Assembly (NCBI GenBank): GCA_965232845.1
Contig: OZ247428.1
Coordinates: 897,511-961,510 of the forward strand
Source of the DNA: Dehalococcoidia bacterium
Lineage (GTDB): Bacteria; Chloroflexota; Dehalococcoidia; Lucifugimonadales; UBA3495
DNA: 64,000 nucleotides
Direction: 5' to 3'
The position numbers were made by a program, and so were the translations under genes. The notes beneath the pieces are model-generated. The model was not told the DNA's origin, searched no databases, and was given only the letters and a program-made list of their open reading frames with translations. Shown piece after piece: positions 37,600 through 54,937 of the stretch (positions are counted from its first letter, which is position 1; each line of letters begins with the position of its first letter).

Positions 37600-37649
37600 T
37601 CCTGCCTGCGGCTGTTTAGCTTCCAGCCTTTTTGGACCGTTGCTGCCAA

Positions 37650-38360
37650 ATGAATGGCATAAACACCCTCTCCCTACTCCACGACCGCATCGTAGGTTGT
37701 TTCCACTGCCCCCGGCTGGTAGCCCACCGGGAACGCATTGCTCGCGACAAGGTTGCCAGGCACCGTGAGGAGGATTACTGGGGTAAGCCGGTGCCCCCTT
37801 TTGGCGACCCCGATGCCAGAATCCTGATATTGGGCCTGGCGCCGGCAGCCCACGGCGGGAATCGCACGGGGCGGTCTTTCACTGGAGACCCCAGCGGCGA
37901 TTGGTTGTTTGGGGCTCTCCATCGGGCCGGGTTTGCCAGTCAGCCGACGTCCTCATCTTCCAATGACGGCCTAACCTTGAATGATGTGTACATCACTAAT
38001 GCAGTGCGATGTGCCCCGCCGGACAACAAGCCCAACCCGGCAGAAAAATTGGCCTGCCGTCCCTTCCTGGTCAAGGAATTGGAACTGATGCAGCAGGTGC
38101 GGGTCGTAATAGCTCTGGGCAAGTTCGCTTTCGACGCTTACCTGCAAACTCGATCGGCGGCAGGCCTGACCAACCCGAAGCCACTGCCAACCTTTGGACA
38201 CGGAAACACCTGCCTCCTGGACGGAGGAGTAACTCTGTTGAGTTCCTACCATCCAAGCCGGCAAAACACTCAGACCGGGAAACTCACCCCGCAGATGATT
38301 GATGACATCTTCCTGGCGGCCAGAGAGCTAATCGCCGACGAAAACCCAGGCAAGCAATGA
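37650..38360 (+). CDS. Uracil-DNA glycosylase, family 4/5 (UdgB-like)
   Basis: CFHCPRLV...YWGKPVPPFGDPDARILILGLAPAAHGGNRTGRSFTGDPSGDWLF...HPSRQNTQTGKL. The ATG at 37650 is preferred over TTG 37632. Confidence 0.8.
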   Translation: MNGINTLSLLHDRIVGCFHCPRLVAHRERIARDKVARHREEDYWGKPVPPFGDPDARILILGLAPAAHGGNRTGRSFTGDPSGDWLFGALHRAGFASQPTSSSSNDGLTLNDVYITNAVRCAPPDNKPNPAEKLACRPFLVKELELMQQVRVVIALGKFAFDAYLQTRSAAGLTNPKPLPTFGHGNTCLLDGGVTLLSSYHPSRQNTQTGKLTPQMIDDIFLAARELIADENPGKQ

Positions 38361-39818
38361 TCAATCCCGTTCCAGGAACCGCCTGACCGCTTCCATCATG
38401 GGCGACCTGTCGTAGGTGGCGTACATTATTTGGGCGTTACGCACCAAATCGCCGGCGAAGAAACGTTCGTAATGAAGGCTACGAGAGCCGAAAGCGCTGC
38501 AGGATATGTCCCAGGCCAGGTGGAACAGTTTGGTCCGGTCGGCAGCCGAGGCCGAGTCGGTGGCAAGGTAATGCTCCAGGTCCGGAGCAATCTCGGAATC
38601 AAAGTCGGCCTGGCTGGGCAGTGCCATCAGGCTGCTGGACCCCAAGAGCTGCATGATCTCCACCATCCGCGGGTAGAAACTGCGGGCGTACATGTTTTCT
38701 GCCACCGTTAGCGGGAATCGGGCCGGGGTAAACAGCCCCCACTCGTCCGGGGCGGCATCGACCTCGGCAGTTCGAAGCAGCGCCTTGATGATTTCCAGGT
38801 TCATGATCATTTCAGCGATGCGCTCCTGTACGTGGGGCTGTTCGCCGGAACCCAGGGTTTCCACCATCAAGGACGCCGTGCCCAGCAGGAACTCCGTCTT
38901 GGCGACGATCCGCGTCACTACCTGGTGGAAGCTGTGCACTATCCAGCCGGTGCGGGCGGTCATGTTGTTGCAGGATTCCACGTTGCCAAGCAGGAACACC
39001 CGTTCCCAGGGCACCAGGACATTGTCGAAAATTGCGACCGCGTCCATCTCCTCAAAACGCGCTCCCAGGGGGTGGTCGAAGGGAGAGCGGCCGTAATCGA
39101 AACTCTCCCGGCAAATGTAACGCAGACCAGGTGTGTTGCTGGGAATGGAAAAAGAAACCGCGTACTGGTCAGCGTTATCCGCGGTATGGTGTGACCGGGA
39201 AGGGTATACGGCTATCTCATCGGATAGCGGCCCCAGCGTCGCAAGGACACGGGCGCCGCGCACCAGGATGCCCGCGTCGGTCTCCTTGATAACCTTGAGA
39301 GCCACGTCTTCGGCTAGGGAGTCGGTAATATAGCGCTGGGGAGAGCGAGAACGCTGAGGGTTGACCAGGGTATGGGTCAGGCAGAGGTCCTCCTCCCGAA
39401 CGTGTTCGTAATAGCGCCGCACGTTTTCTCCGAACCCCTCCCGGTCCTGTTCAAAGTAGGGAGCGGCGGAGGCCATTGCCACGAATGCCGCGTTCATATA
39501 ATCGGGAGTTCGGCCCATCATACCGCCATGGAAGGAAGCCCAACGATAGAACATCCGCCGGCGACGTTCCAAGTCTTCCAGGCCCTGGGGCATCAGGAAG
39601 GACATACCCACTCGGTCGCCCGAAGTAGGAGACCCGTAGGTCATTTCATCGACCAAGTCACTCTGATGCTGCATGTCGTACAGGTCCGCAACTGAACGAG
39701 CCCCGTTGGCAAAGCCGGGATGAGTCGTCACATCCTTGACGCGTTCCCCGCCAACCCAGACTTCGGGTGGCCGCTCTCTCAACCCTTGCAAGTATTGCTT
39801 CCCAGTACGAGCCGGCAT
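38361..39818 (-). CDS. 4-hydroxyphenylacetate 3-monooxygenase oxygenase-component (HpaB) family protein
   Basis: 485 aa. TGKQYLQGLRERPPEVWVGGERVKDVTTHP... and overall HpaB/acyl-CoA-dehydrogenase-fold pattern. No HpaC-type reductase nearby. Confidence 0.8.
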   Translation of the reverse strand: MPARTGKQYLQGLRERPPEVWVGGERVKDVTTHPGFANGARSVADLYDMQHQSDLVDEMTYGSPTSGDRVGMSFLMPQGLEDLERRRRMFYRWASFHGGMMGRTPDYMNAAFVAMASAAPYFEQDREGFGENVRRYYEHVREEDLCLTHTLVNPQRSRSPQRYITDSLAEDVALKVIKETDAGILVRGARVLATLGPLSDEIAVYPSRSHHTADNADQYAVSFSIPSNTPGLRYICRESFDYGRSPFDHPLGARFEEMDAVAIFDNVLVPWERVFLLGNVESCNNMTARTGWIVHSFHQVVTRIVAKTEFLLGTASLMVETLGSGEQPHVQERIAEMIMNLEIIKALLRTAEVDAAPDEWGLFTPARFPLTVAENMYARSFYPRMVEIMQLLGSSSLMALPSQADFDSEIAPDLEHYLATDSASAADRTKLFHLAWDISCSAFGSRSLHYERFFAGDLVRNAQIMYATYDRSPMMEAVRRFLERD

Positions 39819-40059
39819 AGTGCTGGACCTCCAATCGCCTTTTTTCCAGTATAGCAGGGAAGGAATCCTGGTATCTGACTGTCATTGATTGCCCGCCAAC
39901 AGAAATGTGCTTACTATAAATTCCAGTCCCATAGCGACCTGGCTGCTCATACTTATGCTCCTGAATTAGGTCAAATTGTCGCATCCCCTCTAACTAGAGG
40001 TGGAAGCCCTTGCAAGTGCCTATCTTTTTTTGAGCAGCCACACAGGCCGGAGGCAAAGA

Positions 40060-40860
40060 ATGCCAAATTACTCAATCAGCATTGGGAACGTGGAACTGAT
40101 TTCTCTCAGTGACGGTGAGCCGATCTGGTCGCCCTTTGATCCATTTCCCCACATTCCTATAGAACTGTGGCGTGAGTTTCCCGAATTACTGGACAGCGAC
40201 GAACAGATTCACAGTCGTTACGGCGTTACGGCCATTCGCTCGCGAGGCAAACTCATCATTGTGGACACAGGTTTGCATGAACCGGATGGGACACTGCTGC
40301 AGGACATGGAGAGCAAGGGCGTGGACCGGAACGCCGTAGATATGGTCGTATTTACTCATTTGCACCTCGACCACGTTGGCTGGAACCTGATCGAGGGCCA
40401 ACCCACCTTTCCCAACGCTCGCTACCTGATTCCCCAAGAAGACTGGAACCATTGGACCCAGGAGTCTGTATTGGCTAATGAGCCGCACATAGCCGAACAG
40501 GTCATTCCGTTGGAGGAATTGAGGGTAATGGACCTGATTGGGAACGAGCACAACATTACCGACGAAGTCACTACGGTTGCCACCCCGGGGCATACGCCAG
40601 GTCACGTCTCCATCGTCATTGCATCCCAGGGCGAACGGGGTTATATTCTTGGAGACGTAGCCCACACGCCAGCCCAAGCCCATTACACCGACTGGAGCCC
40701 TAGTTTCGACGATCAGCCGGACTTGGCACGCACTACCCGCCACGCCGTGCTTGATATGCTGGAATCGGAAGGGATCGTGGTGTCAGCGGGACACTTCCCC
40801 GCTCCGGGATTCGGCCACTTTGTGAGGGTGAGCGGCCGGCGACAATGGAGGGGTTTATAG
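40060..40860 (+). CDS. MBL-fold metallo-hydrolase
   Basis: VVFTHLHLDHVGWN (HxHxDH), TPGHTPGH, and GDVAH. The ATG at 40060 follows a GGAGG RBS (the track ORF starts at 40000). Confidence 0.85.
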   Translation: MPNYSISIGNVELISLSDGEPIWSPFDPFPHIPIELWREFPELLDSDEQIHSRYGVTAIRSRGKLIIVDTGLHEPDGTLLQDMESKGVDRNAVDMVVFTHLHLDHVGWNLIEGQPTFPNARYLIPQEDWNHWTQESVLANEPHIAEQVIPLEELRVMDLIGNEHNITDEVTTVATPGHTPGHVSIVIASQGERGYILGDVAHTPAQAHYTDWSPSFDDQPDLARTTRHAVLDMLESEGIVVSAGHFPAPGFGHFVRVSGRRQWRGL

Positions 40861-40957
40861 CCGGTTAACCGGAATTGCTTAACCCCAGTGGGCACGGCGG
40901 ATACCGGCAATTCAACTAATCGCCATTGCGCCAAATTTCTTGCTTTGAGGAGCAACT

Positions 40958-41572
40958 ATGATCTACGAAGTCAGAACCTACACTCTGGAGCCCGGAACAG
41001 TTCCCCAGTTTGAAGAGAGTTTTGCCGAGGCATTGCCACACCGTGAAAAGTATTCACCGCTGGCTGCTTTCTGGCACTCCGACATCGGTGTCCTAAATCA
41101 GGTAGTCCACGTTTGGGGATATGAGGACTTGCTGGATAGGGAAAAAATTCGAGCAGAGGCCGCCAAGGACCCCAACTGGCCACCCCGGGATACCAGCATG
41201 ATAATGAATATGGAGTCGGAAATCTGGAATCCTGCGCCCTTCATGCGACCTTTGGGCGGCGGTCAGGAACTGGGCGATGTTTACGAGATGCGGATTTACA
41301 CGTACAAGCCCGGCTCTATCCCCGAACTTCTGAGTCGGTGGGAAAAGGCTCTTCCGTGGCGCGAACAGTTCTCGCCCTGCGTCGCGGCTATGCATACGGA
41401 ACTGGGCGCGTTGAACCGCTGGATGCACATCTGGCCTTACAAGGACTTGAACCACCGGAACGAGATCCGCAAGGCCTCCAGCGGGACTCCCAATTGGCCC
41501 TCAGGAGCCCCGGGCCGAATCCGGCAGGAAAACAAGATACTGATCCCCGCTTCCTTCTCTCCCATGCGCTAG
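40958..41572 (+). CDS. NIPSNAP-family protein (two NIPSNAP repeats)
   Basis: 204 aa. MIYEVRTYTLEPGTVPQFEE...VVHVWGYEDL and YEMRIYTYKPGSIPELLSRWEKAL...WMHIWPYKDL. Confidence 0.8.
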   Translation: MIYEVRTYTLEPGTVPQFEESFAEALPHREKYSPLAAFWHSDIGVLNQVVHVWGYEDLLDREKIRAEAAKDPNWPPRDTSMIMNMESEIWNPAPFMRPLGGGQELGDVYEMRIYTYKPGSIPELLSRWEKALPWREQFSPCVAAMHTELGALNRWMHIWPYKDLNHRNEIRKASSGTPNWPSGAPGRIRQENKILIPASFSPMR

Positions 41573-41650
41573 CCTTTGCCAAGTCTGGCCCCCGCTTCCC
41601 ACACTGCGCGAGTTGTGCTTGGGTGGCGGGGTTCGCCAAACCTGTGACCG

Positions 41651-42823
41651 ATGTCATTTACCAGCTTTTTTGACTCTGTAGAAACGCCTTCCTTCGTGTA
41701 TGATGAGACGGAAGTCGGCAGAGTGCTGGATATCGCCGAATCACTGCGCCGTACGTCAGGTTGTCGCGTCCTATACTCCATTAAGCCTCTATGCTTTCCT
41801 CCATTGCTGGAATTGATGGCGGCGAAACTGGACGGTTTTGCCGTCAGTTCCCTATTCGAGGCGCGATTGGCCCGCTCCATCTTGGGTGACCGGGGGCAAT
41901 TACACTTCACTAGTCCTGGCATCCGCCCGGGGGAGCCTGAAGAACTGGCCTCACTCTGTGACTACGTTGCCTTCAACAGCTTGACCCAATGGGAAAGGCA
42001 CAGTGGGAAGTTTGTTGGGCGGGCAAGTTGTGGTTTGCGAGTTAATCCCGGCCTGTCCTTTCTTGATGATGAGAGATATGACCCCTGCCGAGAAGGTTCC
42101 AAGCTAGGAATATCCCTGGAATCCTTGTCAGAAAATTTGGGGAACCACAAGGCTTTCTTGAATGGGATAGACGGCACGCTGATTCACTCCAATTGCGAAT
42201 CTATTGACTTCAGAGAACTCGAAGAAACCGTGGCCTTGCTTGAAGAAGAGATTCCCCAATTCCTGGGACGCCTAAAGTGGATCAATTTGGGTGGGGGCTA
42301 TCTCTTCAACAAGGATGTGGATATCGGGCCGCTGCAGAGAGTCATTCGGGTGCTTCAATCTAACTGGGGACTGGACGTATACCTGGAACCGGGAGCGGCC
42401 TTTGTCCGTTCGGCTGGGTATCTTGTGGCTTCCGTGCTGGATATTTTTCCCAGCGGGCGCACGAACATTGCAGTGCTGGATACAACGGTGAACCACATGC
42501 CCGAGTTGTTGGAGTTCGATTTTGAGCCGGACATCGAGGGGCATATGAACGACGGCCAATGGGAATATACTCTCGCGGGATGCACTTGCCTGGCCGGAGA
42601 CTTGTTCGGTGAATACCGTTTCAACAAACCGCTTTCAATTGGAGACCGGATCATATTCAGAAACGTGGGTTCGTACACCCTGACTAAAGCGCACATGTTC
42701 AACGGAGTGAACCTGCCCAGCATTTATTCCCTGGGGGACCGAGGGGAGTTGAACCTGTTGAAGACTTTTGGATACGAAGACTTCTCATCTCGTTGGAATA
42801 CGCATGCCGGCAGTTCTGTTTGA
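41651..42823 (+). CDS. nspC: Carboxynorspermidine/carboxyspermidine decarboxylase (PLP, alanine-racemase fold)
   Basis: 390 aa. ETPSFVYDETEV..., PLP-Lys context VLYSIKPLCF, LDGFAVSSLFEARLA, CDYVAFNSLTQW, INLGGGY, and CLAGDLFGEY. These align by eye with Vibrio NspC blocks. Confidence 0.8.
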   Translation: MSFTSFFDSVETPSFVYDETEVGRVLDIAESLRRTSGCRVLYSIKPLCFPPLLELMAAKLDGFAVSSLFEARLARSILGDRGQLHFTSPGIRPGEPEELASLCDYVAFNSLTQWERHSGKFVGRASCGLRVNPGLSFLDDERYDPCREGSKLGISLESLSENLGNHKAFLNGIDGTLIHSNCESIDFRELEETVALLEEEIPQFLGRLKWINLGGGYLFNKDVDIGPLQRVIRVLQSNWGLDVYLEPGAAFVRSAGYLVASVLDIFPSGRTNIAVLDTTVNHMPELLEFDFEPDIEGHMNDGQWEYTLAGCTCLAGDLFGEYRFNKPLSIGDRIIFRNVGSYTLTKAHMFNGVNLPSIYSLGDRGELNLLKTFGYEDFSSRWNTHAGSSV

Positions 42824-44117
42824 AAGAGAATTAATCGTCCCCCGCAATTACCAGAAAAGGAACCCACTGTTTCACCTGGAAGGCGCTCTCCTTTCTCAGT
42901 CGGAAGGGGGAGACGTTCCAATCCGATTGGCCGTTACATCTTCCTCAGAAGAAGGCTATCACTGCGAAGTAGGTCTGCTTTCTGGCTGGGAGGGCTCAGA
43001 ATTGCCTTCCCTCTTTCGTTGTCATCGCCGGTCCCTTGAAAACAATAACCAATTCACTTGCGTGCTCCTGGTCCCCACCGGCATTGGCGCAGAGATAGGA
43101 GGCCATGCCGGGGACGCCACGCCGGTCTCGGCGCTGCTGGCGGCCGCCTGCGACACACTGATCACCCACCCTAACGTCGTTAATGCCTCGGACATAATAG
43201 ACATACCCTCAAATGCTCTCTATGTAGAGGGCAGCGTTATTAGCCGCCTTCTCTTGGGTGTTATAGGACTGCAGCCGGTGCGCAGAAACCGGGTCCTGGT
43301 GGTTTTGGGACACCATGACGACGACTTATTCATCCATGCGGCTATTAACTCTGTCAATGCGGCCAGGGCCAGTTACGGTTTGACAGTGCCCAGTATCGTA
43401 AGGTTAGGCCCGGAATTTGAAATGGAGGCCAATTACGTCGAATCTGGCAGGGCCGCGGGAAAGGTCGGGGGGCTGAACGTTCTGTTTAGCGCCTTACAGG
43501 AACGAGACCACTCCTTTGATGCGGTGGCGATAACTTCACAAATCCTTGTCCCTGCCGGTTACCACGCGGACTATTTCGAGAGCAACGGCGAGATGGTAAA
43601 TCCGTGGGGCGGAGTAGAAGCCATGCTGACTCATGCCGTTTCCACCATTTTCAATGTGCCTTCTGCTCATGCGCCTATGCTGGAAACCCAGGAAATTGCT
43701 AATGCTGACCCGGGCATCATCGACCCGCGGATGGCGGCTGAGGGCGTATCCCTTGCCCTGATACAGTCCGTATTGAAGGGCTTGCAACGGAGCCCGAGGA
43801 TAGTATCCGAACTGGAAGGGATGAATCATCCCAGCGTGATAACGGCCGCCGAAGTTTCTTGCCTGGTAATCCCGGACGGATGCGTGGGGCTACCGGTGTT
43901 GGCAGCTTTGGAGCAGGGAATACCTGTAATTGCGGTCAAGGAAAACCGCAACCTCATGAGGAACGACCTGGCTGACCTGCCCTGGGCTGAGGGACAACTT
44001 ATCCCCGTAGACAACTATTGGGAAGCAGCCGGAGTGATTTCAGCTCTCAGGGCGGGTATTGACCCTGCGGCAGTGCGTCGCCCGATTCCTCTTGCACCCG
44101 TAAATTGGCACCTGTAA
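42804..44117 (+). CDS. DUF3326-like protein of unknown function
   Basis: About 437 aa from ATG 42804 (track ORF from TTG 42768). Overlaps the nspC 3' end by at least 20 nt. Contains VLLVPTGIGAEIGGHAGDATPVSALLAAACDTLITHPNVVNASD, which I recall as the DUF3326 signature. Confidence 0.55.
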   Translation: MPAVLFERELIVPRNYQKRNPLFHLEGALLSQSEGGDVPIRLAVTSSSEEGYHCEVGLLSGWEGSELPSLFRCHRRSLENNNQFTCVLLVPTGIGAEIGGHAGDATPVSALLAAACDTLITHPNVVNASDIIDIPSNALYVEGSVISRLLLGVIGLQPVRRNRVLVVLGHHDDDLFIHAAINSVNAARASYGLTVPSIVRLGPEFEMEANYVESGRAAGKVGGLNVLFSALQERDHSFDAVAITSQILVPAGYHADYFESNGEMVNPWGGVEAMLTHAVSTIFNVPSAHAPMLETQEIANADPGIIDPRMAAEGVSLALIQSVLKGLQRSPRIVSELEGMNHPSVITAAEVSCLVIPDGCVGLPVLAALEQGIPVIAVKENRNLMRNDLADLPWAEGQLIPVDNYWEAAGVISALRAGIDPAAVRRPIPLAPVNWHL

Positions 44118-44162
44118 ACGGTCATATTCCGAAGTTTCTGGCACGGGATATCTAGAAAAGAA

Positions 44163-44188
44163 AAGCGGAACGCCATCGCGTTCCGCTT
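44163..44188. terminator. Bidirectional intrinsic terminator between the DUF3326-like gene and the psp operon
   Basis: AAGCGGAACGC-catc-GCGTTCCGCTT (11-bp stem). An A-run lies upstream on the plus strand, giving a U-tract (tttcttttct) for the minus-strand psp transcript. Confidence 0.75.
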
Positions 44189-44217
44189 GAGTTTCAAGCC
44201 CACTGCTGGGTCACTAC

Positions 44218-44496
44218 CTAGCCCGGAAGCAAGCCATCTCCGATGAAGATATGCTCGGCCTCTTCCAGCGTCAAATCGATTTCCGGTAGTATGAAGTCTG
44301 ACTCAACCAACTCATCCAACGGCAACGGCGATCCCTTTTCCCTGACCAAAGAAATCATTTCCAGAAGCAGGGAACGAAAACTCTCTTCATTCTCGGTTTC
44401 CACAGCCTCAACCATGCGGTTGTCAATGTCATTCAGGTCGTCTATTACCGCGCCCGGCAAATTGAACTGACCTTCACCTAATATTCTAACGATCAT
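44218..44496 (-). CDS. PspA-associated protein PspAA
   Basis: 92 aa, acidic. MIVRILGEGQF...DDLNDIDNRMVEAV...SFRSLLLEMISLVREKG...GLLPG. Sits 26 nt downstream of pspA with a GGGTGG RBS. Confidence 0.7.
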   Translation of the reverse strand: MIVRILGEGQFNLPGAVIDDLNDIDNRMVEAVETENEESFRSLLLEMISLVREKGSPLPLDELVESDFILPEIDLTLEEAEHIFIGDGLLPG

Positions 44497-44522
44497 CGTT
44501 CGACCACCCAGTCCTGTTGATA

Positions 44523-45302
44523 CTAGCTAGATCCCTGGTTCCTCAAGGCGTCCAATTCGGCATCTACGGCAGAACCGCTCGACGATGGCAGCGCCCTGGT
44601 CTGGCTTGCGGGGCTAATGCCCTTAAGGGCCGCCAATTCATCCTCGACGCTTTGCGAGATGGAAATCTGCGAAAGCTCCCTTTCGATATCATCCTGGGGG
44701 CCGTTAACATCATCGAGAACACCGGTGGCCACCAACTCGTCAATGGCGCCGGCCTTCGCCCGCATCTGGTCCGTTTTGTTCTCTGCACGTTGCACCGCCA
44801 GCGAGACGTCCCCCATTTCTTCCGAAATCCCGCCTAGAGCCGCCCCGATTCTTACCTGGGCCTGGGCCGCGGTGTACTGAGCCTTGATAATTTCCTTCTT
44901 GTTGCGGAAGGCGTCGACCTTAGTTTGCAGGCGCTGCTCCGCGATGGTGAGCTTCTGTTGCTCCTGCTCCATCCCCTCTATCTGTTCGTCCAACCCCTGC
45001 AATTCGATTACCGCATTTTGCTTTCGTTGGAGAGCCAGACGGGCCAGGTCCTCGCGGTCAGCATCCAGGGCTTGCTTGGCCTGACGTTCCAGCCTCGTTA
45101 TGTTTTCTTTAACCTTGGTAGCCTGCTGCTGGATGCGTCGCTTGGCCGTAACCATTTCGACGACTCCTCGCTTGACGTTCTGCAACATTTCGAGTTGCTT
45201 TTCGTAGGAATAGTCAAGAGTCTCCCGCGGGTCTTCCGCGGAATCCAATATGCGGTTCATTTTCGACTTTACGATGGTCGACATCCTTGAAAACATTCCC
45301 AT
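44523..45302 (-). CDS. pspA: PspA/IM30/Vipp1-family membrane-stress protein
   Basis: 259 aa. MGMFSRMSTIVKSKMNRILDSAEDPRETLDYSYEKQLEMLQNVKRGVVEMVTAKRRIQ, then long coiled-coil heptads and an S/A-rich tail. Confidence 0.9.
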   Translation of the reverse strand: MGMFSRMSTIVKSKMNRILDSAEDPRETLDYSYEKQLEMLQNVKRGVVEMVTAKRRIQQQATKVKENITRLERQAKQALDADREDLARLALQRKQNAVIELQGLDEQIEGMEQEQQKLTIAEQRLQTKVDAFRNKKEIIKAQYTAAQAQVRIGAALGGISEEMGDVSLAVQRAENKTDQMRAKAGAIDELVATGVLDDVNGPQDDIERELSQISISQSVEDELAALKGISPASQTRALPSSSGSAVDAELDALRNQGSS

Positions 45303-45405
45303 GGGAACAACCTCCAGCTAAAAGAAACTTCCCGGCCCTTTCCGGCAGCTCAACTTGCAGCTTCTCGATTGGTTCTAGATTTACTGTCCTTGTCCCAACT
45401 CAGTC

Positions 45406-45582
45406 TCAGTATCTATCCTTCTTCCCGAAGATAGCCATGGCGCCAACTATAACTCCGAGGACAATGCAGATTGCCCCAAGAATCCAGAGCAAGAAGTTGA
45501 GGATGCCGCTGACTAACAGTATCCCCAGGACCAACAAGAATATTGCGACACCAATTCCACCAAAAGACCCAGATATCGACAT
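45406..45582 (-). CDS. Small (58 aa) two-TM membrane protein, first gene of the psp operon (below the ORF-track size cutoff)
   Basis: Manual translation: MSISGSFGGIGVAIFLLVLGILLVSGILNFLLWILGAICIVLGVIVGAMAIFGKKDRY*. GAGGA RBS 7 nt upstream of the ATG. Stops 103 nt upstream of pspA. Confidence 0.6.
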   Translation of the reverse strand: MSISGSFGGIGVAIFLLVLGILLVSGILNFLLWILGAICIVLGVIVGAMAIFGKKDRY

Positions 45583-46172
45583 GAACTATTCCTCGCCTGA
45601 TTAAGGGGGTTTCGGACCGGTAGGGTCAAATTGCCAAGTTTTGTTCAACCGCAAGAATATTACGGACACAGAAATGGATTGCATCGGCAACAGTCGGTAC
45701 GAAGATTCACACACCCGTACTTTCCACAACCATATTCCTTCAAGTCAACAATACCTTCCCTTCCCCCTAGGGTCAAGGGAAACCAAATTACGTTGCAGGG
45801 CAATCATCATCAAGAGGACGGGATTTGCCAAGAAGGACTTGATCGATGCCAATGTGGGAGCAGGATCAACAAATCCCCCCCGTTTCCGCTAAATTCTGCC
45901 CGTTCTTAGTCTTGGCAGTGTAACAGTGAGTAGCCGAAGGACGGGAGGTATCGCAAAGACTATAGCGGTAGAGGGTAACAGGGCCTGCCCAGTGACGGTT
46001 GCTATCGATCTCGGATCACGTTCGTCCAAAAGAACAATGGTAGAAGAGTTGAACACGAAAAACCAATAACGGTCAGCAATGCGTGCAGAATTGCGACAAC
46101 CCGGAATTCTGCCGCAATCAGGTTCGGCCCAGCAAGAACTGATTGACTGCTTTATAGGAGCCTGCTAACCCG

Positions 46173-46181
46173 TGCTATTAT
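46173..46181 (+). promoter_or_regulatory. Candidate extended -10 promoter (TGcTATTAT) for the DUF4178/DUF350 operon
   Basis: cgTGcTATTATgtag, about 115 nt upstream of the ATG at 46298. No good -35. Confidence 0.35.
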
Positions 46182-46297
46182 GTAGTGAGTTTAGAATAAT
46201 ACGCCGTGGTTCGGGTTCAGTAGTTCGGAATCTTAGTCCTGATTCAGATTACCTGGACAGCATTGAGTAGAAGGTAAGTGAGGATTGGGGGTCAGCA

Positions 46298-46900
46298 ATG
46301 TTACGGTCTCTTTTCGGCAAAGGTAAGAAAAAACGAGAACCAACGAATGCGCGCCTGGAAACGAGCATTCGAGATGCCAGGGTCGGGGACGTCGTAGTCA
46401 TCCAAGGGTTGGCCCTGGAGTACGAAGACTGTTACTTCGTAGTGGAGAATATTCATCGGTATGGGGGCAGCGGCATCGTCTGGTTTGAACTGGTGGTCGC
46501 CGACTCCGACAATCGCATTTGGCTGGAATGGTCCGAGGACGATTCCGGGCTATTTGTTACCGCAACTGACAATCGCCGCCCCGTTGGTCTGGAATCCATC
46601 GGCTTGACGGAGTCTGACCTTATGTCGATCGATGAACAACGATCGATAGACCGCTCTCTAGTTGTAGATGGATTGCGCTATATCTATCGCAATAGTTTTG
46701 AAGCCTTCTATTTTCGTGACAATAGGCCAACCAACGGCGAAGGCTTTTACATGTGGGAGTTTCTTGCGGAGGACGAGAGTCGGACCCTGGCAATAACCAA
46801 GTTTGAAGATGTCCCATTCGAAGCCCACTTCAGCGAAATAATGGACCCGGACAACGTTCACCTCTATCCCGGCGAAAGGCCGGAACACAGGAGCCGGTGA
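46298..46900 (+). CDS. DUF4178-like protein
   Basis: 200 aa. VGDVVVIQGLALEYEDCYFVVENIHRYGGSGIVWFELVVADSDNRIWLEWSEDD, then a second beta-rich repeat (YMWEFLAEDESRTLAITKFED). GGATTGGGGG RBS. Confidence 0.55.
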   Translation: MLRSLFGKGKKKREPTNARLETSIRDARVGDVVVIQGLALEYEDCYFVVENIHRYGGSGIVWFELVVADSDNRIWLEWSEDDSGLFVTATDNRRPVGLESIGLTESDLMSIDEQRSIDRSLVVDGLRYIYRNSFEAFYFRDNRPTNGEGFYMWEFLAEDESRTLAITKFEDVPFEAHFSEIMDPDNVHLYPGERPEHRSR

Positions 46901-47811
46901 GTGAGATGCTGGAAGCCCTTAACGATTCGTTAGTATTTTTCCCGAGGGGACTGATCTACGTCGCTCTTGGCGTTGTGGTGATGGTACTGGCCAAGTTTGC
47001 CAGGGATCTCACTACGAGACACAGACTGGACGAGGAAGTAGTCCAAAAGAAGAACCTCTCCGAGGCATTGCGGATATCTGGCTACTTTTTTGGAGTAGTG
47101 CTGGTATTCGTTGGCGCTGTTTACCAACCTACCTACCTGGCGCAGGTCGACATCGGTCTGGGATTCAATGCAGACTTTGGCATTGACGTTCTTCGGGTTT
47201 TCCTTTATTCACTAGCCGGCATTGTTGCGCTGAATCTGGTGCGTGTTGTGATGGACCGGCTGGTGCTCTACAAGTTAGATGTTGAAAAGCAAGTAATACA
47301 GGACCAGAACTCGGCAACAGGTGCGGCCGAGTTCGGACTATTCGTGGCCACGGGACTGGTTATCGCGGGCGTCCTTTCCGGTTCGGGAGGGGAGAGCGAA
47401 CTGTCAGAGGCCCTTATTTCCCTGGCTTTCTTTGTATTGGGGCAAATAGTGCTGGTCTTGTTCGCACTTTCTTACGAGTTTACAACCTCATTTGACATTC
47501 ACGAGGAGATCGAAAAGGACAACCTTGCAGTTGGAGTCGCCTTTGGTGGGAACCTTGTCGCCATTGGCCTGGTTATGCTCAAGGCCTTGTCCGGAGATTT
47601 TCAGGGTTGGCTGCAGGGCATAACCGAGTTCGTTATCTTTGCCTTAGTTGGATTTGTTCTGCTCTATGTGCTGAGGCTGCTGGTGGACTTGCTTGTGCTG
47701 CCAAGAGTCCGAGTTTCTGAGGAGATGTCTTCGGGCCAGAATGTGGGAGTTGCCTTTCTCGAAAGCGCCGTGGTGATCAGCTCTTCCCTGATTCTCTTCT
47801 TCGCAATTTAG
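46897..47811 (+). CDS. Integral membrane protein with duplicated DUF350-like modules
   Basis: 304 aa, about 8 predicted TM helices in two similar halves (each with ...D/EEI/V..KNL/NLA.AL/GV...). GTG 46897 overlaps the upstream TGA (GTGA); alternative ATG at 46906. Confidence 0.6.
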   Translation: MSEMLEALNDSLVFFPRGLIYVALGVVVMVLAKFARDLTTRHRLDEEVVQKKNLSEALRISGYFFGVVLVFVGAVYQPTYLAQVDIGLGFNADFGIDVLRVFLYSLAGIVALNLVRVVMDRLVLYKLDVEKQVIQDQNSATGAAEFGLFVATGLVIAGVLSGSGGESELSEALISLAFFVLGQIVLVLFALSYEFTTSFDIHEEIEKDNLAVGVAFGGNLVAIGLVMLKALSGDFQGWLQGITEFVIFALVGFVLLYVLRLLVDLLVLPRVRVSEEMSSGQNVGVAFLESAVVISSSLILFFAI

Positions 47812-47914
47812 GAGGAAGCTGGATAGTTGAGGATAATGTTCCGCGCGAATTGGTGGGGTAGTTTTGCCGTTTGTTGAGCAACTCCTGGCCCAACAGATCC
47901 ATTTGGGTTTCGTT

Positions 47915-48952
47915 CTAAGAAGGAGTAGCATTAATACTATTTCCTATTCGCGCGATTAATCGGCCTTTTCTGCCTGCTTCTTCAGCCGCTTCCAGAAGTG
48001 AAAGGCCCTGGTCCAAGATCTCTTCCAAAGGCTCGTCGGCCAGGACGCTCCGGTTCACGACAGGCTCCAACAAAGAGTTGAAGAATTCGTCCTTCCCGAT
48101 TAGCTCCGTCCAGGAATCCGCAAACTCATCAAGCGTTCCGTCGTAGAGCCTCAGCAAGAAGATGGTTCGAACCGGGTCGAGGCCGTCTAGACAATAAATG
48201 GCAGGCCGCAGATCTTCTCCATGCCCGGTACCGAACAGGGCACAGTCCGTATCGTCGTCCCATACCACGTCTCCAAAAATATCGTACTTATCGATGTACG
48301 ATTCGGTCTCCCTCAACAGGTTGCCTATGTATTGCCGGCCCTGTGACGTAATTTCTAACCTGCCACCGCCTTCAGAAAATGTGACGAGGCCCTTCAGGCA
48401 CAACTGCTGAATGGCGGCCGTATCCGGACTTCCTTCTTGAGAGTCCTTCAACCCCGGCGGTTGGTGTTCATGCTTGTCCAGGAAATAAATGGCGCTGCAG
48501 GTTTGTAGCCAGTTCAGCAAGTCGGTTTCGCCAGCCGTGTATCCATTCACTAACGCATACTCAAGCGCCTGATATTCGGGGCGCAACATCAGCGATAGTA
48601 AATTGCACTTGCCCCCGTCCTTGTCAGTGATGGGAGAAAAATACCCTTCAACGTGGCCCTCCATAGCGAGAGGGGCGCCCCTTGTATCACTCATATGCAG
48701 GGTACACAGTCCACTCCGGAATTGCTCCACCACCCCCAGGAAGTAGTCGTAAATCTCGGGCAGGTCAGGGTTCTCTTCCAAGTCGAAGGAATCCTGTATG
48801 GCCAGTTGGGACTCTTCCTCCGCTGGGAAAATCATGTCAAACAGGTAGCCAATGTCAATGGCGGCAGTTTCCCCTGGGAAATCCATTTCCAGGAAGGCGT
48901 CTTCTGGCAAACCCGCCATGGTCAGCTTTACTGTCAATCCAACAATGTTCAT
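47915..48952 (-). CDS. Hypothetical acidic cytoplasmic protein
   Basis: 345 aa, no TM or signal peptide, D/E-rich. Possible winged-helix-like stretch (LCLKGLVTFSEGGGRLEITSQGRQYIGNLL). No family recognised. Confidence 0.5.
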   Translation of the reverse strand: MNIVGLTVKLTMAGLPEDAFLEMDFPGETAAIDIGYLFDMIFPAEEESQLAIQDSFDLEENPDLPEIYDYFLGVVEQFRSGLCTLHMSDTRGAPLAMEGHVEGYFSPITDKDGGKCNLLSLMLRPEYQALEYALVNGYTAGETDLLNWLQTCSAIYFLDKHEHQPPGLKDSQEGSPDTAAIQQLCLKGLVTFSEGGGRLEITSQGRQYIGNLLRETESYIDKYDIFGDVVWDDDTDCALFGTGHGEDLRPAIYCLDGLDPVRTIFLLRLYDGTLDEFADSWTELIGKDEFFNSLLEPVVNRSVLADEPLEEILDQGLSLLEAAEEAGRKGRLIARIGNSINATPS

Positions 48953-49088
48953 AGATTCCTGTACGCCAGGTCAGTTGCCGATCAGTTTCTGGAAACAGAC
49001 CATTTCCGTCTGTTAATGGCTTTGTGAGGTCCGGAAAAGAACTCCAAAACCTCTTATGCCTTCAACCCCTTAGCCCAGACCAATGTGG

Positions 49089-49892
49089 TTACCCGCCCTT
49101 TCCCCTTAGATTCAAGTGACCGCCACCGCCAGTGAAGCTGCCGCTACGGGCGCGGCCGGACGACGAGCCGAAACTGGAACGCGAGGACCTTGAGACGGCG
49201 CTGCTGGACCTGAAGGCTCCCGAAGTCCTCTGCGTCTGCTGGTAGCTTTGCCGATTTGAACTGAGGTTACGGCTGGAGTCCTGGTAACGGGAACCGGCGA
49301 AACCCTGCTGCCTGGTGGAATACCTGCTATTTCGCGCGACCTGGCTGGCATACCGGCTGGAGCCACGGTAATTTGCCCTACTGCGCCGAATTGAAGAGCC
49401 CCGGCTGACCGGGGTGGAATAGAAATAGGGGCCCGGATAGAACGCGGTGGCCAACATATAACCGAACAGGAAGCTTCCTCCCCCAAAGCTGCTGTGGTAG
49501 TAGCCGTTGGCGTTGTGACCGCGCATTTCGTGCTGATCGTTGTTCTGTACGATGGAAAAGAGCTGGTCATCCCCAGAATCTTCGATTTCGTTGTTTCCGT
49601 TCAGGTCCTCCCAACCCTCCAGGGTCAGGTTGTCTCCGTTCTGCTGGGCGCGGATCAATATGATTCCGTCGCCTTCATAGATTTCATTTACCCGTTCTTC
49701 GAATTCGGTGGCGCTCTCGGACTCCTTAAATGCCTGCTGAACGTCGTCCAGATTTATGCGGCCGGCGGCACCGTCGGTGGCGGCCCAGGTATCATAGGAT
49801 GGACCACTGCTGCAAGCGGCTATCAGCGGGGAACCGGCCACCATGCTTCCGGCAAAAATTGCCGCGCTTAATCTCCTCAGTCTCGGTGCCAT
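49089..49892 (-). CDS. Lipoprotein with acidic N-domain, hydrophobic Gly/aromatic segment and about 100-aa Ser/Arg/Gly/Gln-rich tail
   Basis: The ATG at 49892 has a GGAG RBS 5 nt upstream. MAPRLRRLSAAIFAGSMVAGSPLIAAC-SS lipobox. ...DLNGNNEIEDSGDD...GGGSFLFGYMLATAFYPGPYFY...RGSSIRRSRANYRGSSRYASQVARNSRYS...SRSSRSSFGSSSGRARSGSFTGGGG. Confidence 0.65.
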   Translation of the reverse strand: MAPRLRRLSAAIFAGSMVAGSPLIAACSSGPSYDTWAATDGAAGRINLDDVQQAFKESESATEFEERVNEIYEGDGIILIRAQQNGDNLTLEGWEDLNGNNEIEDSGDDQLFSIVQNNDQHEMRGHNANGYYHSSFGGGSFLFGYMLATAFYPGPYFYSTPVSRGSSIRRSRANYRGSSRYASQVARNSRYSTRQQGFAGSRYQDSSRNLSSNRQSYQQTQRTSGAFRSSSAVSRSSRSSFGSSSGRARSGSFTGGGGHLNLRGKGG

Positions 49893-49985
49893 CTCAACTC
49901 CTTTAATTGGGCCCAACCACGTTGTTGGAAGATAATGCCTGGGAGTCCTCTCCCTTCGATGCGGGAGGAAAAGCAATCCGATAGT

Positions 49986-52900
49986 TCATGCTACAAGTTG
50001 ACCAATTTCCCGGCTTAACTCAGAATCTTCGGCTTTTTCGTCGGACACCCGGGTAACGGTCTGCAGGGGAAACGTCAATATGCTCGAAAGAAATAGATCA
50101 CTTAGAGTTTCCTGGAACCGGTCCCACTGCTCCGCCGCATGAATTATGTAGTCTGCAACCGCCGACTTGTGCCCGATGCTGGCAGCCACAGAACTGAAAA
50201 CTGACCGTCTCAGGATCTTCCTATGCTGCAACCAGGCCTCGTCGCCGCATTCCAGGAGCAATTGCCGTGCCAGTTCATTGAATCCCTCGATTCCGATATG
50301 GGCCCGACGGACTTCCAACATTTCCATCAGTTGATCCGCCAACCTGTGGGGAACTTCGTCCAAAGCAACCCCCCGGAGGCTGGAAAGGTCGACTTCAAAC
50401 ATATGGCGGGCATCTTCGGACAAATTAGCAAACTGTTTTGCATAGTCGATTGAGTCCATCCCTGGGAAGTGCGACTCAACCAAACGCCGGGCAGTGTCAG
50501 CAACGAAGATCGGCAGGTTCTCTGCCGGGTTGGCCTTGTTCAATAATTGGCCGCGCATTTCGTAATAGGCAGCGCTGTGCTCATCAACCACTGCAGAGTA
50601 GTCGCCAAGAACGCTGCGGCGATGGGCCGCCTCGGTCTCCGCTTCAATTTGACGACTCCTGATAAAACGCTCAACCTCTTTGCCTTCAAAGTACGTTCGA
50701 CCGCCGTTATCAACTTTGCGACACCGGTCCAGGTTAGGACCTCTCTTTCCCAATGAGAACAAAGACTGGTCGTCCCACGACAGCAGCGCCCGGGAGGAAC
50801 CAAAATTTCCCTGCCGGCCGCTTCTTCCTTTCAATTGAAGCGCAACCCGAGGGAACTGATTAAATTCAGAACTTACGACGTGCAGTCCCAAGCCAAATTC
50901 CAGAGTTGGAATGAATCCAATACCTTTGTCTGGATTGCTGGGGGCATTTTCAAGAGAGACTACCAGGGAATAACACCCTTGTTGGTCTTCTGCCGCAACC
51001 ACCAATCCGGGTAGGGCCAACAGAGATTCCCGAAGCAGTTGCCCCTCCGTCTTGGAATTGCACCGAATCCTGACATGGGGACAATCGCCGGCCATTCGAC
51101 TACGGACCCGGGCGACGCATTGACGGAGGACGTCCCGGTCCAAGTCAGCAGCCAGGACTATGTCTGTTCCGCGTCCAGCCATATTGGTAGCCACGGTAAC
51201 GGCGCCGAAATTTCCTGCAGTGCGGACTATCTCAGCCTCTTTGAAACTATTGACGGCATTTAGCACCTGGTGTCCGATGCCGGCGCTCTGCAGCGCCTGG
51301 CTGAGCTTCCAGGATTGCTCGACTGTCTGTACACCCGCCAACACCGGTCGCCCAAGCAGGTTGCATGACACAACTTCAGCTACGATGGCGGCGGTCCTAT
51401 TTTCCTCAGTCAAATATATGCGGGTAGCCAGATCGGAACGTTTTGGAGGATATGTGGTTGGTACGGACGCTACCTTTAAGGAATACCGCCGCCAAAACTC
51501 TTCGGAGGCATCGGATGCTGTTCCAGTTGTTCCGGCCAACGATGGGTAGCGGCAAACAAAACCTTGCACCGAAATCTGGGCCAGGCTCTCGTGATCCGGC
51601 TCTACCGCGACCCCCACTTTTGCCTGAAGCGCGGGCTGCAGTCCGTCCTGGTAGGAATTGTCCGGCTTAAGTCTGCCGGTGTATTTATCCAGGAGAAACA
51701 CCGAGCCGTCAGCAACCATATAGTCCACGTCTTGCACCAGGATCAAGTGCGCACGAAGGGATTGATACACCTGGTTAGCCAAGTCAAGCCGGCGCATTGC
51801 TCTGCGGGAGAGCTGACCCTCCAGACTGGCATCGACCTCATTCCTGGAAGTGGCAACGTTGAAGTCCCCCAATTGACCTTCCAGGAATGCCATACCTTTT
51901 TCGGTCAGGGTTACCAGATTCTCCTGCGGGTCTGCTATGTAATACAGGCCACCAGTCAAGGACTCATCGGGAGAGTCGTTACCATTGGGGTACAAGCCCG
52001 CCATACCCCGTCGATAGGAACGCGGGTAAATGAGGGCCAACCTTCGCAGTTGCTCGTTACGAGGACTGGCCAGCAGACCCAGGCAGACTAGAGTCGCAAA
52101 ACTGGCGTGCGATGGGTCTGTATCTCTTAATGTGGTCAGGTATTCGCTGGCTAGATCTTCCTGACGGGCCACCATTCCAGCTACCGCCCGATTGACCCGG
52201 TGCAATGGCTGGGAATTACCTACGGGAGCTCCCGCTATGATAAGCGGGGTGTCAGCTTCATCAATTAAAGCTTGGTCGACTTCATCGACTATGGCCACCT
52301 GAAGGAGCGGTTGGATTACTTCTTGCCTCCCACGAGCCAGATTGTCCCGTAGATAGTCGAAACCAAACTGGCGCAAGGTACCATACACAATGTCACACTT
52401 ATAGGCCGCTTTCCTTTCAACGTCGTCCATGGCATCAAGGATGGCGTCCACCGAGAAACCCAAAGAGTGGTAAACCTCAGCCAAGAGCCGGCAATCACGC
52501 TCGGCCAGGTAGTCGTTGGCAGTCAGGATATGAACTGAACGTCCCAGCACAGCGTGCATAACTGCGGCAAAGGCAATGGCCACCGTCTTGCCTTCCCCAG
52601 CCTGCATTTCCACGACCTTGCCTTCCAGGAGTAGAACGCCGGCAAGGAGTTGCTCATCCGTAGGGTCGTAACGGAAATTCCTTTCGGCGTCTTTGCCTTC
52701 CATCGCTTGATAGAAAGAGGCGGGAAACTGTAAGTCCAACCCGTAGCGCCCCGGGGAGGCCGATCGCGCCAACTTGATGGCGTGGACTATGTTGATTTCC
52801 TCTGAGTCCAGCTTTGCGGCGTTTGGTTCGCCGTTCGCGACTTTGAAGCAGTCACCGAAGTCGGCCTGCCTGCGAGGGTTGTTAAACAAACGCCAGGCGC

Positions 52901-53240: not shown

Positions 53241-53272
53241 TGTCCCTTGCCCTCATACCAGAGAGGAACAAA

Positions 53273-54676: not shown

Positions 54677-54859
54677 AAATTTCTCAGGGAAGCAGGCAAG
54701 CGTCCTGCGACACGATCATAGGTGCATTATAACGGTAGCGGGGCAACCCTAAGAGAACTGGGATTACAGCCCGCGATAGCCCTTCAGAAGCCCGAAAGAG
54801 GAAGTCGGAGAATCACTTCACCGACCCAACTTGCAATGAAGAAATGAGGCCAAGAATTG

Positions 54860-54937
<78 letters not shown>

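Follow-up and report, generated by a model that had tools for sequence, protein, structure and literature searches.

We describe here a group of 11 genes located at positions 41651-54676 of a 64,000-nucleotide (nt) stretch, the window, of contig OZ247428.1 from a Dehalococcoidia bacterium (Chloroflexota; assembly GCA_965232845.1). The genes are arranged in four transcription units: an nspC-like decarboxylase gene with a DUF3326 gene; a gene for a small two-transmembrane (two-TM) protein (sTM) with pspA and pspAA; a DUF4178 gene with a tandem-DUF350 gene (DUF350x2); and an operon composed of U467, a secA-like gene, a lipoprotein gene and U345, where U467 and U345 stand for proteins of 467 and 345 amino acids (aa). 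In our assessment, the whole picture of a single, functionally linked island of SAR202-type Dehalococcoidia has about an even chance of being right. The island is probably a membrane system that makes an amine and N-acylates it. Gene order was determined from six-frame open reading frames (ORFs) combined with Pfam and NCBIfam scans (Table 1). The original prediction had placed a polyamine enzyme and DUF3326, PspA/PspAA, DUF4178 and DUF350 genes in the first half of this region. All genes named in it are present where they were placed, and hidden Markov model searches put the domains (carboxy(nor)spermidine decarboxylase (CANSDC) family, DUF3326, PspAA, PspA and DUF4178) above the Pfam gathering scores. 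The boundaries had to be moved, the unit being about twice as large and including the whole operon of the SecA-like protein up to position 54676.

A one-genome-per-species scan with the DUF350x2 alignment disclosed relatives in 167 genomes, the closest of them 94% identical. The best 80 of the 167 are metagenome-assembled genomes of Dehalococcoidia, the SAR202 cluster or Chloroflexota, besides one labelled “uncultured bacterium”. To count neighbours, all window proteins were compared by tblastn with 86 loci of ± 10 kb taken from species-level genomes. With DUF350x2 as the anchor (86 of 86 loci), U345 and the lipoprotein were found in 84 loci, the SecA-like protein in 82 and DUF4178 in 81, followed by the nspC-like protein, DUF3326, PspA and PspAA (75 each) and U467 (74). 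Presence drops sharply for proteins encoded in the flanks, i.e. NIPSNAP (27), HpaB and a thioredoxin-like protein (19 each), MBL (15), UDG (13) and Mfd (11). Adjacency of the nspC, psp and DUF4178/DUF350 genes is thus not unique to this genome, as island genes occur in 74-86 of the 86 loci and flanking genes in 11-27. All-versus-all clustering of ORFs over the ± 10 kb flanks gave no further conserved family beyond the island genes. Extra ORF “families” that emerged from the clustering turned out to be antisense shadows of known island genes and were rejected. Such long antisense ORFs (120-230 aa; loci L007-L086) are conserved merely through their overlap with conserved genes in DNA of 55% GC, and would inflate naive gene-family counts.

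Some neighbours within the island never part. The nspC-like and DUF3326 genes always adjoin each other where present (75/86 loci), pspAA always follows directly after pspA (75/86), and the DUF4178 gene is always located directly upstream of DUF350x2 (81/86). In addition, 68 of 74 loci have upstream of pspA a two-TM ORF of 55-65 aa that shows the same pattern of sequence and ends in a basic C-terminus. At least four distinct arrangements hold the same gene set together. The nspC-like/DUF3326 pair is located left of the psp genes in loci of the window type, it heads the U467-SecA operon in many loci, in either internal order, and it is directly divergent from DUF350x2 in L077 and L083. In all, the pair occupies three positions and changes strand, remaining within the island each time. 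The psp pair is inverted in locus L023, and insertions are present in several loci. Survival of linkage through rearrangement, with the flanks decaying, speaks for a functional unit.

Related operons in distant lineages bear on which part of the gene set forms the core. In locus L090 (GC 59%), the first genes are DUF350x2 (32% identity), lipoprotein (30%), U345 and U467, followed by genes for a 258 aa protein, a PaaK/F390-like acyl-CoA ligase, an SNase and an RCK K+ channel. Gene order is the same in L095 and L096, and operons of the L090, L095 and L099 types have in common DUF350x2, lipoprotein, U345, U467, the 258 aa protein, the PaaK/F390-like acyl-CoA ligase and the K+ channel. Locus L093 (GC 37%) comprises in one operon DUF350x2, lipoprotein, U345, U467 and an nspC-like gene (39%), continuing with genes for a 211 aa protein, a K+ channel, a PRMT-type arginine methyltransferase and DUF3326 (48%). 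The DUF350x2 homologues that head the L090 and L093 operons are 26-32% identical to the window protein. A metagenome scan with an alignment of the distant U467 branch added 80 further contigs. Among distant-branch contigs with enough sequence, U345 is located directly upstream of U467 in 18/18, and the lipoprotein (12/12), DUF350x2 (10/10), the K+ channel (9/9) and an acyl-CoA-ligase-like gene (6/12) accompany it. In marine SAR202 contigs, U467 is followed by the K+ channel in 21/33, by the nspC-like gene in 13/33, and by the SecA-like gene in all 23 that reach at least 6 kb downstream of U467. Seven marine SAR202 contigs (L161-L166 and L177) contain U467, nspC, DUF3326, the acyl-CoA-ligase-like gene and the SecA-like gene together.

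As judged from these gene orders, the evolutionary core is composed of DUF350x2, lipoprotein, U345 and U467, usually with the K+ channel, and it appears decorated with the amine-making pair (nspC-like/DUF3326), with an acyl-activating enzyme, or with both. No distant operon contains PspA, PspAA, DUF4178 or the SecA-like protein, which makes the psp operon, DUF4178 and the SecA paralogue Dehalococcoidia additions. The original prediction had treated the region as a variant of a PspA-polyamine membrane-stress theme. The theme persists, but PspA is not its organising element, because distant lineages keep DUF350x2, lipoprotein, U345 and U467 co-linear without PspA, PspAA, DUF4178 and the SecA-like protein; the conserved core is centred on DUF350. 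In distant operons, a staphylococcal-nuclease-like (SNase) gene is repeatedly located between the K+ channel gene and those of the enzymes (L090:13635-14315, + strand; also L099, L107-L109 and L113).

The same comparisons bear on inherited synteny as the source of linkage. In that case, the nspC-like/DUF3326 pair would be a housekeeping polyamine pathway, PspA/PspAA would serve general envelope stress, and the SecA-like operon would be unrelated to both. Consistent with this explanation, all of the best 80 genome loci belong to Dehalococcoidia, SAR202 or Chloroflexota, PspA/PspAA, DUF4178 and the SecA-like protein do not accompany the core in distant lineages, and about 10 of the 86 loci have no PspA or nspC within 10 kb. 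On the other hand, only 11-27 of 86 loci retain the flanking genes, as against 74-86 for island genes, and at least three relocations of the nspC/DUF3326 pair have left it within the island. Furthermore, both genes of the pair share one operon with DUF350x2, lipoprotein, U345 and U467 in the unrelated organism of 37% GC (L093), and U467 is fused to agmatinase in one relative. Inherited synteny seems a distinctly unlikely account of the island.

Membership of the nspC-like protein in the CANSDC family is certain from its sequence, the protein aligning full-length with the solved CANSDCs 9eaf_A (over residues 7-381), 3n29 and 3mt1 (E 3e-86 to 1e-58). On the TIGR01047 nspC model it attains 305.4 bits, below the equivalog cut-off of 409, a score that assigns the family and does not imply the same substrate. 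The homologue in L093 attains 248.8 bits on the same model. The gene was called as two ORFs (217 and 178 aa) in one relative (L003:5026-6227), which may be a frameshift, a pseudogene or a long-read assembly error. The same decarboxylase family works in the CANSDH/CANSDC and CAPADH/CAPADC/APAUH pathways (PMC10599626). No CANSDH or CAPADH of the saccharopine-dehydrogenase type was found beside the nspC-like gene within the island, whereas the adjoining, overlapping gene codes for DUF3326 in 75 of 75 loci. In the island, DUF3326 thus takes the place held by the dehydrogenase in those pathways, next to a decarboxylase with a score below the nspC equivalog.

The DUF3326 gene most likely begins at ATG 42804. 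From there it codes for 437 aa, the length called in relatives, and overlaps nspC by 20 nt. The protein carries an invariant Gly-rich loop, PTGIGAEIGGHAGDA, and its homologue in the distant operon L093 is 48% identical. Comparison with PDB sequences, using both the single sequence and a profile, returned nothing meaningful, and none of the PLSDB plasmids was matched in tblastn. For DUF3326, the sole functional account found in the literature is a preprint on pavettamine (bioRxiv 10.64898/2026.06.12.731819), according to which PavA, with a CANSDC-like decarboxylase domain, and PavB, a DUF3326 protein, are both required for a triamine intermediate. Because of this requirement, and following the logic of the CANSDH/CANSDC pathway, we infer by analogy that DUF3326 may be the amine-aldehyde condensing partner of the decarboxylase. 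Pairing of a CANSDC-like decarboxylase with a DUF3326 protein is common to pavABC of Paraburkholderia/Caballeronia and the island. Unlike in the island, Rieske and racemase-like domains are joined to the pavABC decarboxylase in one protein, a JmjC hydroxylase cooperates with it in making a toxin, and membrane, PspA or SecA components are absent.

No Pfam family was assigned to U467 above threshold (PF00797, the arylamine N-acetyltransferase (NAT) family, 12.4 bits versus a cut-off of 22.8), and a single-sequence search of PDB returned nothing. Its AlphaFold model, built from 33 homologues, has pLDDT 90.8 and pTM 0.90. In a Foldseek search of PDB, the top 37 matches are arylamine N-acetyl-, N-malonyl- and N-acyl-transferases and the GdmF amide synthase (probability up to 1.0, E 2.5e-4 to 1e-2), followed by transglutaminase-like proteases and transglutaminases. 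Residues Cys227, His284 and Asp299 are invariant in near homologues and in a set that includes distant ones of 21-42% identity. In profile comparison, the counterpart of H284 and D299 in human NAT2 and NAT1 is the HLLLQV...IVDAGSG segment (chain residues 103-131), which in textbook NAT numbering holds catalytic His107 and Asp122, and the profile matches GdmF around the Cys; these matches are weak (E 0.16-0.7). One distant homologue has a weak Transglut_core match at the Cys region. The predicted fold is therefore like that of the NAT superfamily, including RifF and GdmF, with a Cys-His-Asp triad and the His-to-Asp spacing of NATs. In contrast to NATs, U467 has 467 aa with additional N- and C-terminal domains, and it belongs to a small family of its own: out of 1.84 billion representatives, 174 clusters reach E ≤ 1e-3. 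U467 is thus predicted, on its structural model, to be an N-acyltransferase or amide synthase. The original prediction correctly saw a polyamine enzyme of the CANSDC type, while a conjugating enzyme of the GspS type appeared to be missing; U467, with a NAT-like fold and not related to GspS, is a likely candidate for this role in the half of the island beyond the coordinates given there.

A natural agmatinase-U467 fusion (P0369) ties the U467 family to polyamine metabolism independently of gene neighbourhood. Its U467 domain is 37% identical to the window protein, and its agmatinase part attains 228 bits on TIGR01230 (cut-off 174), recalling the ureohydrolase step of the agmatine route. The fusion, 771 aa long, is located at L089:1597-3912 (+) on a contig of 4.7 kb, and the next gene, at 4053-4739 (+), codes for an HTH_3 and SocA/Panacea antitoxin-like protein.

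A likeness to amide synthases would also suit a small-molecule cluster, in the manner of pavABC and of siderophore or ansamycin amide synthases, in which an N-acyl-polyamine natural product is made and exported by DUF350x2. PavAB is a precedent for the pairing of CANSDC-like and DUF3326 proteins, U467 resembles GdmF-type amide synthases and N-malonyl/acyl-transferases, and PaaK/F390-like acyl-CoA ligase genes are found in sister operons. However, the island shows no patchy distribution, being present almost throughout the 167 species-level genomes of a single clade, its conserved set includes no carrier proteins or tailoring enzymes, and the lipoprotein, the PspA module and the frequent RCK-gated K+ channel point to envelope physiology. 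We consider such a natural-product cluster very unlikely.

The K+ channel itself could point to cation or osmotic homeostasis without conjugation. Polyamine and the RCK-gated channel would balance cations, U467 would acetylate excess polyamine like SpeG, and DUF350x2 with the lipoprotein would sense the envelope. The channel gene is present in 9/9 distant operons and 21/33 marine SAR202 contigs, the same channel was noted in polyamine/DUF350 operons (PMC11237479), and a NAT fold is suited to simple acetylation. Yet no channel gene occurs in the island of the window and of most of the 86 loci, the acyl-CoA-ligase genes of sister operons speak for a particular acyl group other than acetyl, and the SecA paralogue, U345 and the conserved basic tail of the lipoprotein are left unexplained. 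Homeostasis of this kind is quite unlikely to be the function of the island.

The SecA-like protein contains the DEAD motor, the PPXD and the wing/scaffold domains, and is a SecA superfamily ATPase. It scores below the housekeeping SecA equivalogs (513 versus 814 on NF009538, 494 versus 800 on TIGR00963) and below the cut-offs of all accessory SecA2 equivalogs (TIGR03714, TIGR04221, TIGR04397 and NF012136). Its identity to E. coli SecA is 30%; relative to that protein, the N-terminus is extended by ~ 135 aa, two inserts are present and the C-terminal zinc-finger tail is missing. The best PDB match is SecA2 of C. difficile. An alignment of 23 sequences (E. coli SecA and 22 family members) shows no variation in Walker A, the DEAD box, motif VI or the GRSGRQG arginine finger. 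The two-helix finger drives polypeptide movement in canonical SecA, and its motif, LRGYAQKDPKQEY, is replaced in the SecA-like protein by a family-specific HKSAVAxY. In genome pairs with Mfd 76-89% identical, the SecA-like proteins are only 44-49% identical, indicating much faster evolution. With intact ATPase motifs, sub-cut-off SecA and SecA2 scores, an altered finger and fast evolution, the protein appears to behave as an active, neofunctionalised accessory paralogue.

The adjoining lipoprotein has a conserved lipobox and an acidic ectodomain (isoelectric point (pI) 4.05) with an invariant WAATDGAAGRINLDDVQ...NEIYEGDG motif, followed by an aromatic hydrophobic stretch and a basic tail of pI 12 in which Arg, Tyr, Gln and Ser positions are conserved. 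Homologues in L090 and L093 are 30-33% identical and share a WAAxxGxAGxINLDDV motif. No Pfam match was obtained for it even at E ≤ 10. A DUF1190-like lipoprotein had been suspected at this place; profile comparison with E. coli YjfM by hhalign gave a probability of 0.2%, and the label was dropped, the two proteins being alike only in their lipoprotein-plus-tail architecture. In L093, the PRMT-type methyltransferase gene (L093:14371-15297, +; PRMT_C 56 bits) is located beside the K+ channel and DUF3326 genes, and the lipoprotein tail is rich in Arg-Gly/Arg-Ser.

U345 has pI 4.1 and no Pfam family. Its AlphaFold2 (AF2) model (pLDDT 88) comprises an N-terminal ubiquitin-like (Ubl) beta-grasp domain, a middle part of winged-helix type and, at the C-terminus, a long helix. 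Foldseek gave weak matches to the cytosolic Ubl domain of EccD, to the bacterial Ubl 8tyx, to LC3 and to the winged helix-turn-helix of DtxR/MntR.

Accessory export of the SecA2 type was considered as the organising principle of the island, in which case the basic-tailed lipoprotein would be exported by the paralogue with U345 as chaperone, PspA would buffer secretion stress and the polyamine genes would be peripheral. As in the accessory SecA2 systems of Gram-positives and mycobacteria, an additional, divergent SecA whose ATPase motifs are intact is encoded beside a candidate substrate with a Ser-rich tail. The SecA-like gene adjoins the lipoprotein gene in 82-84 of the 86 loci and follows U467 in 23/23 marine SAR202 contigs that extend at least 6 kb. 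SecA2 as the best PDB match, the invariant motifs and the lipoprotein tail of pI 12 agree with such a role, the acidic U345 has a Ubl domain resembling, in a weak match, the cytosolic domain of EccD from type VII secretion, and Psp is induced by Sec/Tat defects (PMC10948618). Unlike SecA2 systems, the island has no SecY2, Asp-type or glycosyltransferase partners in its conserved set, the scores are below cut-off, the finger is altered, and the gene is set among polyamine and DUF350 genes. Moreover, distant operons keep the lipoprotein, U345, U467 and DUF350x2 without a SecA-like gene. Export of this type is unlikely to be what holds the island together.

PspA is the slowest-evolving member of the island (median identity 81%). 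It matches PF04012 over residues 2-228 with 94.1 bits (cut-off 33.9), while on the equivalog of proteobacterial PspA, TIGR02977, it attains 78.4 bits against a required 243. The PspA-PspAA dyad, separated by a 26-nt spacer in the window, is kept in 75 of the 86 loci, and is known to occur in other contexts (PMC11237479). In L027, a second, partial PspA-like stretch between pspA and pspAA (7744-8082, -), 54% identical to residues 4-118, suggests local duplication. The 58 aa two-TM ORF upstream of pspA was assigned to no Pfam family. Pfam matches of DUF4178 vary from weak to clear among relatives. The internal duplication of DUF350 asserted earlier is borne out by two PF03994 stretches (165.6 bits together), and hydropathy fits ~ 8 TM segments, i.e. 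the 8-TM form. The most likely start of this gene is ATG 46906, giving 301 aa, and a word search returned 764 relatives. In a survey of literature on DUF350, and on SAR202 combined with polyamine, nothing functional was found.

From the domain and fold assignments, invariant catalytic residues and conserved linkage observed, we infer the chemistry, substrates, transport direction and stress connection of the island as follows. DUF3326 would condense an amino-acid semialdehyde with an amine, and the CANSDC-family enzyme, dependent on pyridoxal phosphate (PLP), would decarboxylate the product to a polyamine. U467 would form an amide on this polyamine, using an acyl-thioester donor, which sister operons may supply via their dedicated ligase. 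Less likely, U467 would act in transfer to or from protein, for example the Gln/Arg-rich tail of the lipoprotein. The SecA paralogue may power export or insertion of the adjoining lipoprotein, the long and strongly basic tail of which is expected to resist passage across an energised membrane; U345 could be an acidic cytoplasmic partner or regulator. DUF4178 and the 8-TM double DUF350, together with the lipoprotein, might handle or sense the product at the membrane. The sTM-PspA-PspAA proteins would be an ESCRT-III-type membrane-protection module, recruited in this lineage, which guards the membrane while the system works.

The joint form of this proposal is rather unlikely to hold in every part. 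In it, the system has a polyamine of its own, obtained by a non-canonical route with DUF3326 as a non-homologous replacement of carboxyspermidine dehydrogenase beside a CANSDC paralogue, U467 couples the polyamine covalently to an acyl group or to the lipoprotein tail, the SecA paralogue and DUF350 handle the lipoprotein, and PspA guards. Several observations weigh against the overall picture of one functionally linked island. All 86 close loci come from one class, so that linkage of PspA, DUF4178 and the SecA-like protein could in part be inherited synteny, and, as described above, none of these proteins nor PspAA was found in distant operons. The score of the nspC-like protein is under the equivalog cut-off, and the pavettamine preprint provides for DUF3326 a genetic requirement only. 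U467 being much larger than NATs, its TM-scores against them are low (0.29 and 0.44), and its sequence scores are sub-threshold; in addition, the window has no acyl-CoA-ligase gene that could supply the acyl donor. The fold matches of U345 are all weak (E > 0.01), and the lipoprotein of L093 has no hydrophobic stretch.

The joint occurrence of PspA-like proteins, DUF350 membrane proteins and polyamine enzymes is a recurrent observation in the literature (PMC11237479; Li et al. 2019, as cited there). That this theme has a documented precedent, as the original prediction stated, is confirmed by PMC11237479 and by the annotation of E. coli yjfIJKLMC. An 8-TM double DUF350 next to DUF4178 and a lipoprotein has already been described, as have PspA(YjfJ)-CesT operons with 8-TM DUF350, DUF4178, lipoprotein and a membrane spermine-synthase-like enzyme, and other operons with a GspS-like ATP-grasp ligase, K+ channel, 4-TM DUF350, DUF1190 and DUF2491 (PMC11237479). 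SecA, N-acetyltransferase- or transglutaminase-like enzymes, U345 and U467 are not mentioned in that paper.

The E. coli yjfIJKLMC operon encodes CesT-like YjfI, PspA-like YjfJ, YjfK (DUF2491), YjfL (DUF350), the DUF1190 lipoprotein YjfM and the ligase YjfC, which is annotated as peptide--spermidine ligase (Pederick 2023, as cited in PMC10948618). It has in common with the island a PspA-superfamily protein, DUF350, a lipoprotein and a polyamine amide-forming enzyme, for which U467 is the candidate in the island, and the RCK K+ channel is found both in yjf-related operons and in sister versions of the island. The likeness drawn earlier holds as a shared theme; homology does not extend beyond DUF350 and the generic PspA_IM30 fold. 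PspA has no BLASTP similarity to YjfJ (E = 1.6), U345 compared with YjfI (CesT/Tir, DUF2170) gave an hhalign probability of 0.1%, with no CesT structure among its Foldseek matches, and U467 was rejected as a relative of YjfK/DUF2491 (hhalign probability 0.3%). Because these comparisons and that of the lipoprotein with YjfM are all negative, the yjf operon is, at the level of sequence, an analogue of the island and not its homologue. No ATP-grasp ligase of the GspS/YjfC type was present among conserved ORF clusters or Pfam matches, and U467 would occupy the role held in E. coli by the non-homologous ATP-grasp peptide-spermidine ligase YjfC. In comparison with yjfIJKLMC, DUF350, doubled in the island, is the sole detectable homologue, the amide-forming candidate is NAT-like and not ATP-grasp, and PspAA, DUF4178, the SecA paralogue and the polyamine-synthesis pair are added.

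Another related system is the ‘second group’ operon of Ravi et al. 2024 (Shewanella-type; PMC11237479), comprised of CesT/Tir-PspA, a 7TM-spermine/spermidine-synthase-like protein, 8-TM YjfL, the Ctha_1186 lipoprotein and DUF4178. Both have an 8-TM DUF350, DUF4178, a lipoprotein, a PspA homologue and a polyamine enzyme of aminopropyl type. The island differs in having the semialdehyde route (DUF3326 and a CANSDC-family decarboxylase) instead of an aminopropyltransferase, in the absence of a CesT/Tir partner, and in PspA of the PspAA-associated kind.

Ordinary in its theme and new in its parts, the island shares with known systems the DUF350, DUF4178 and PspA/PspAA families, and its other proteins have no homology to the E. 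coli ones. The theme is re-implemented in it with non-homologous parts, a semialdehyde-route pair standing for SpeE/SpeD and a NAT-fold enzyme for the ATP-grasp ligase, which suggests that what these systems have in common is the production of an amine and its conversion to an amide at the membrane. If the polyamine-coupling reading is true, it would provide the first biochemical context for DUF350, DUF3326 and DUF4178, and an undescribed envelope system of abundant marine bacteria. SAR202-type Dehalococcoidia are among the most abundant deep-ocean bacteria, and the near-universal presence of the island in them gives it ecological reach. To our knowledge, none of them is genetically tractable. 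Leads are offered by the soluble enzymes DUF3326, the nspC paralogue and U467, by the Rosetta-stone fusion with agmatinase, and by the four-gene core common to distant lineages. The island also brings to light a SecA paralogue that evolves fast and has a changed two-helix finger.

Table 1. Genes and other features of the island and its edge in the window.
Feature	Position	Strand	Basis or remark
nspC-like PLP decarboxylase, carboxy(nor)spermidine decarboxylase family, 390 aa	41651-42823	+	Orn_DAP_Arg_deC 41.8 bits
DUF3326 protein, 437 aa	42804-44117	+	PF11805 301 bits (cut-off 25)
Terminator-like hairpin, 11-bp stem and T-run, directly 3' of pspAA, between the convergent DUF3326 and pspAA genes	44163-44188	-	consensus scan, pattern match only
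PspAA, PspA-associated protein A, 92 aa	44218-44496	-	PF22743 110.8 bits, full length
PspA/IM30, ESCRT-III-like membrane-remodelling protein, 259 aa	44523-45302	-	PF04012 94.1 bits
Small two-TM membrane protein (sTM), 58 aa, heads the sTM-pspA-pspAA operon	45406-45582	-	no Pfam family
Divergent intergenic gap, 715 nt, between the sTM/pspA and DUF4178/DUF350 operons	45583-46297		
DUF4178 protein, 200 aa, cytoplasmic by hydropathy	46298-46900	+	PF13785 29.7 bits (cut-off 25, marginal)
Tandem-DUF350 (YjfL-family) membrane protein, 301 aa, ~ 8 TM, island anchor	46906-47811	+	PF03994 165.6 bits, two stretches
U345, acidic cytoplasmic protein, 345 aa	47915-48952	-	no Pfam family
Lipoprotein, 267 aa, lipobox LIAAC27	49089-49892	-	no Pfam match
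SecA-like ATPase paralogue, 1084 aa	49986-53240	-	all four SecA Pfam domains
U467, NAT/transglutaminase-like fold, 467 aa	53273-54676	-	AF2 model, Foldseek
tRNA-Pro(CGG) gene, between U467 and the thioredoxin-like gene	54862-54937	-	marks upstream edge of the U467-SecA-like operon

An Rfam scan of positions 40000-56000 at E ≤ 1 returned tRNA only, and the 715-nt divergent region, in which there is also no long ORF, gave no riboswitch or leader. The distance from the pspA start to the DUF4178 start is about 1 kb in the window, and varies from ~ 380 to more than 2200 nt among relatives. In a 77%-identical relative, an integrase gene of the insertion sequence type (helix-turn-helix and rve; L004:8015-9103, -) is located in this divergent region, both flanking operons being intact. 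No defence-system model of PADLOC matched the island, the sole match being a spurious coiled-coil one of PspA to JetC (E 5e-4). Homologues of the K+ channel, acyl-CoA ligase, PRMT and 258 aa proteins were sought in the window and none was found.

Upstream of the island, a block at positions 37632-41572 carries genes for UDG, an HpaB-like flavin monooxygenase, an MBL-fold hydrolase and NIPSNAP. The MBL-fold gene is split in one relative (92 and 188 aa; L001:3152-3951), which may likewise be a frameshift, a pseudogene or a long-read assembly error. The block is kept in closer relatives only (11-27 of 86 loci), with NIPSNAP next to nspC lasting longest.

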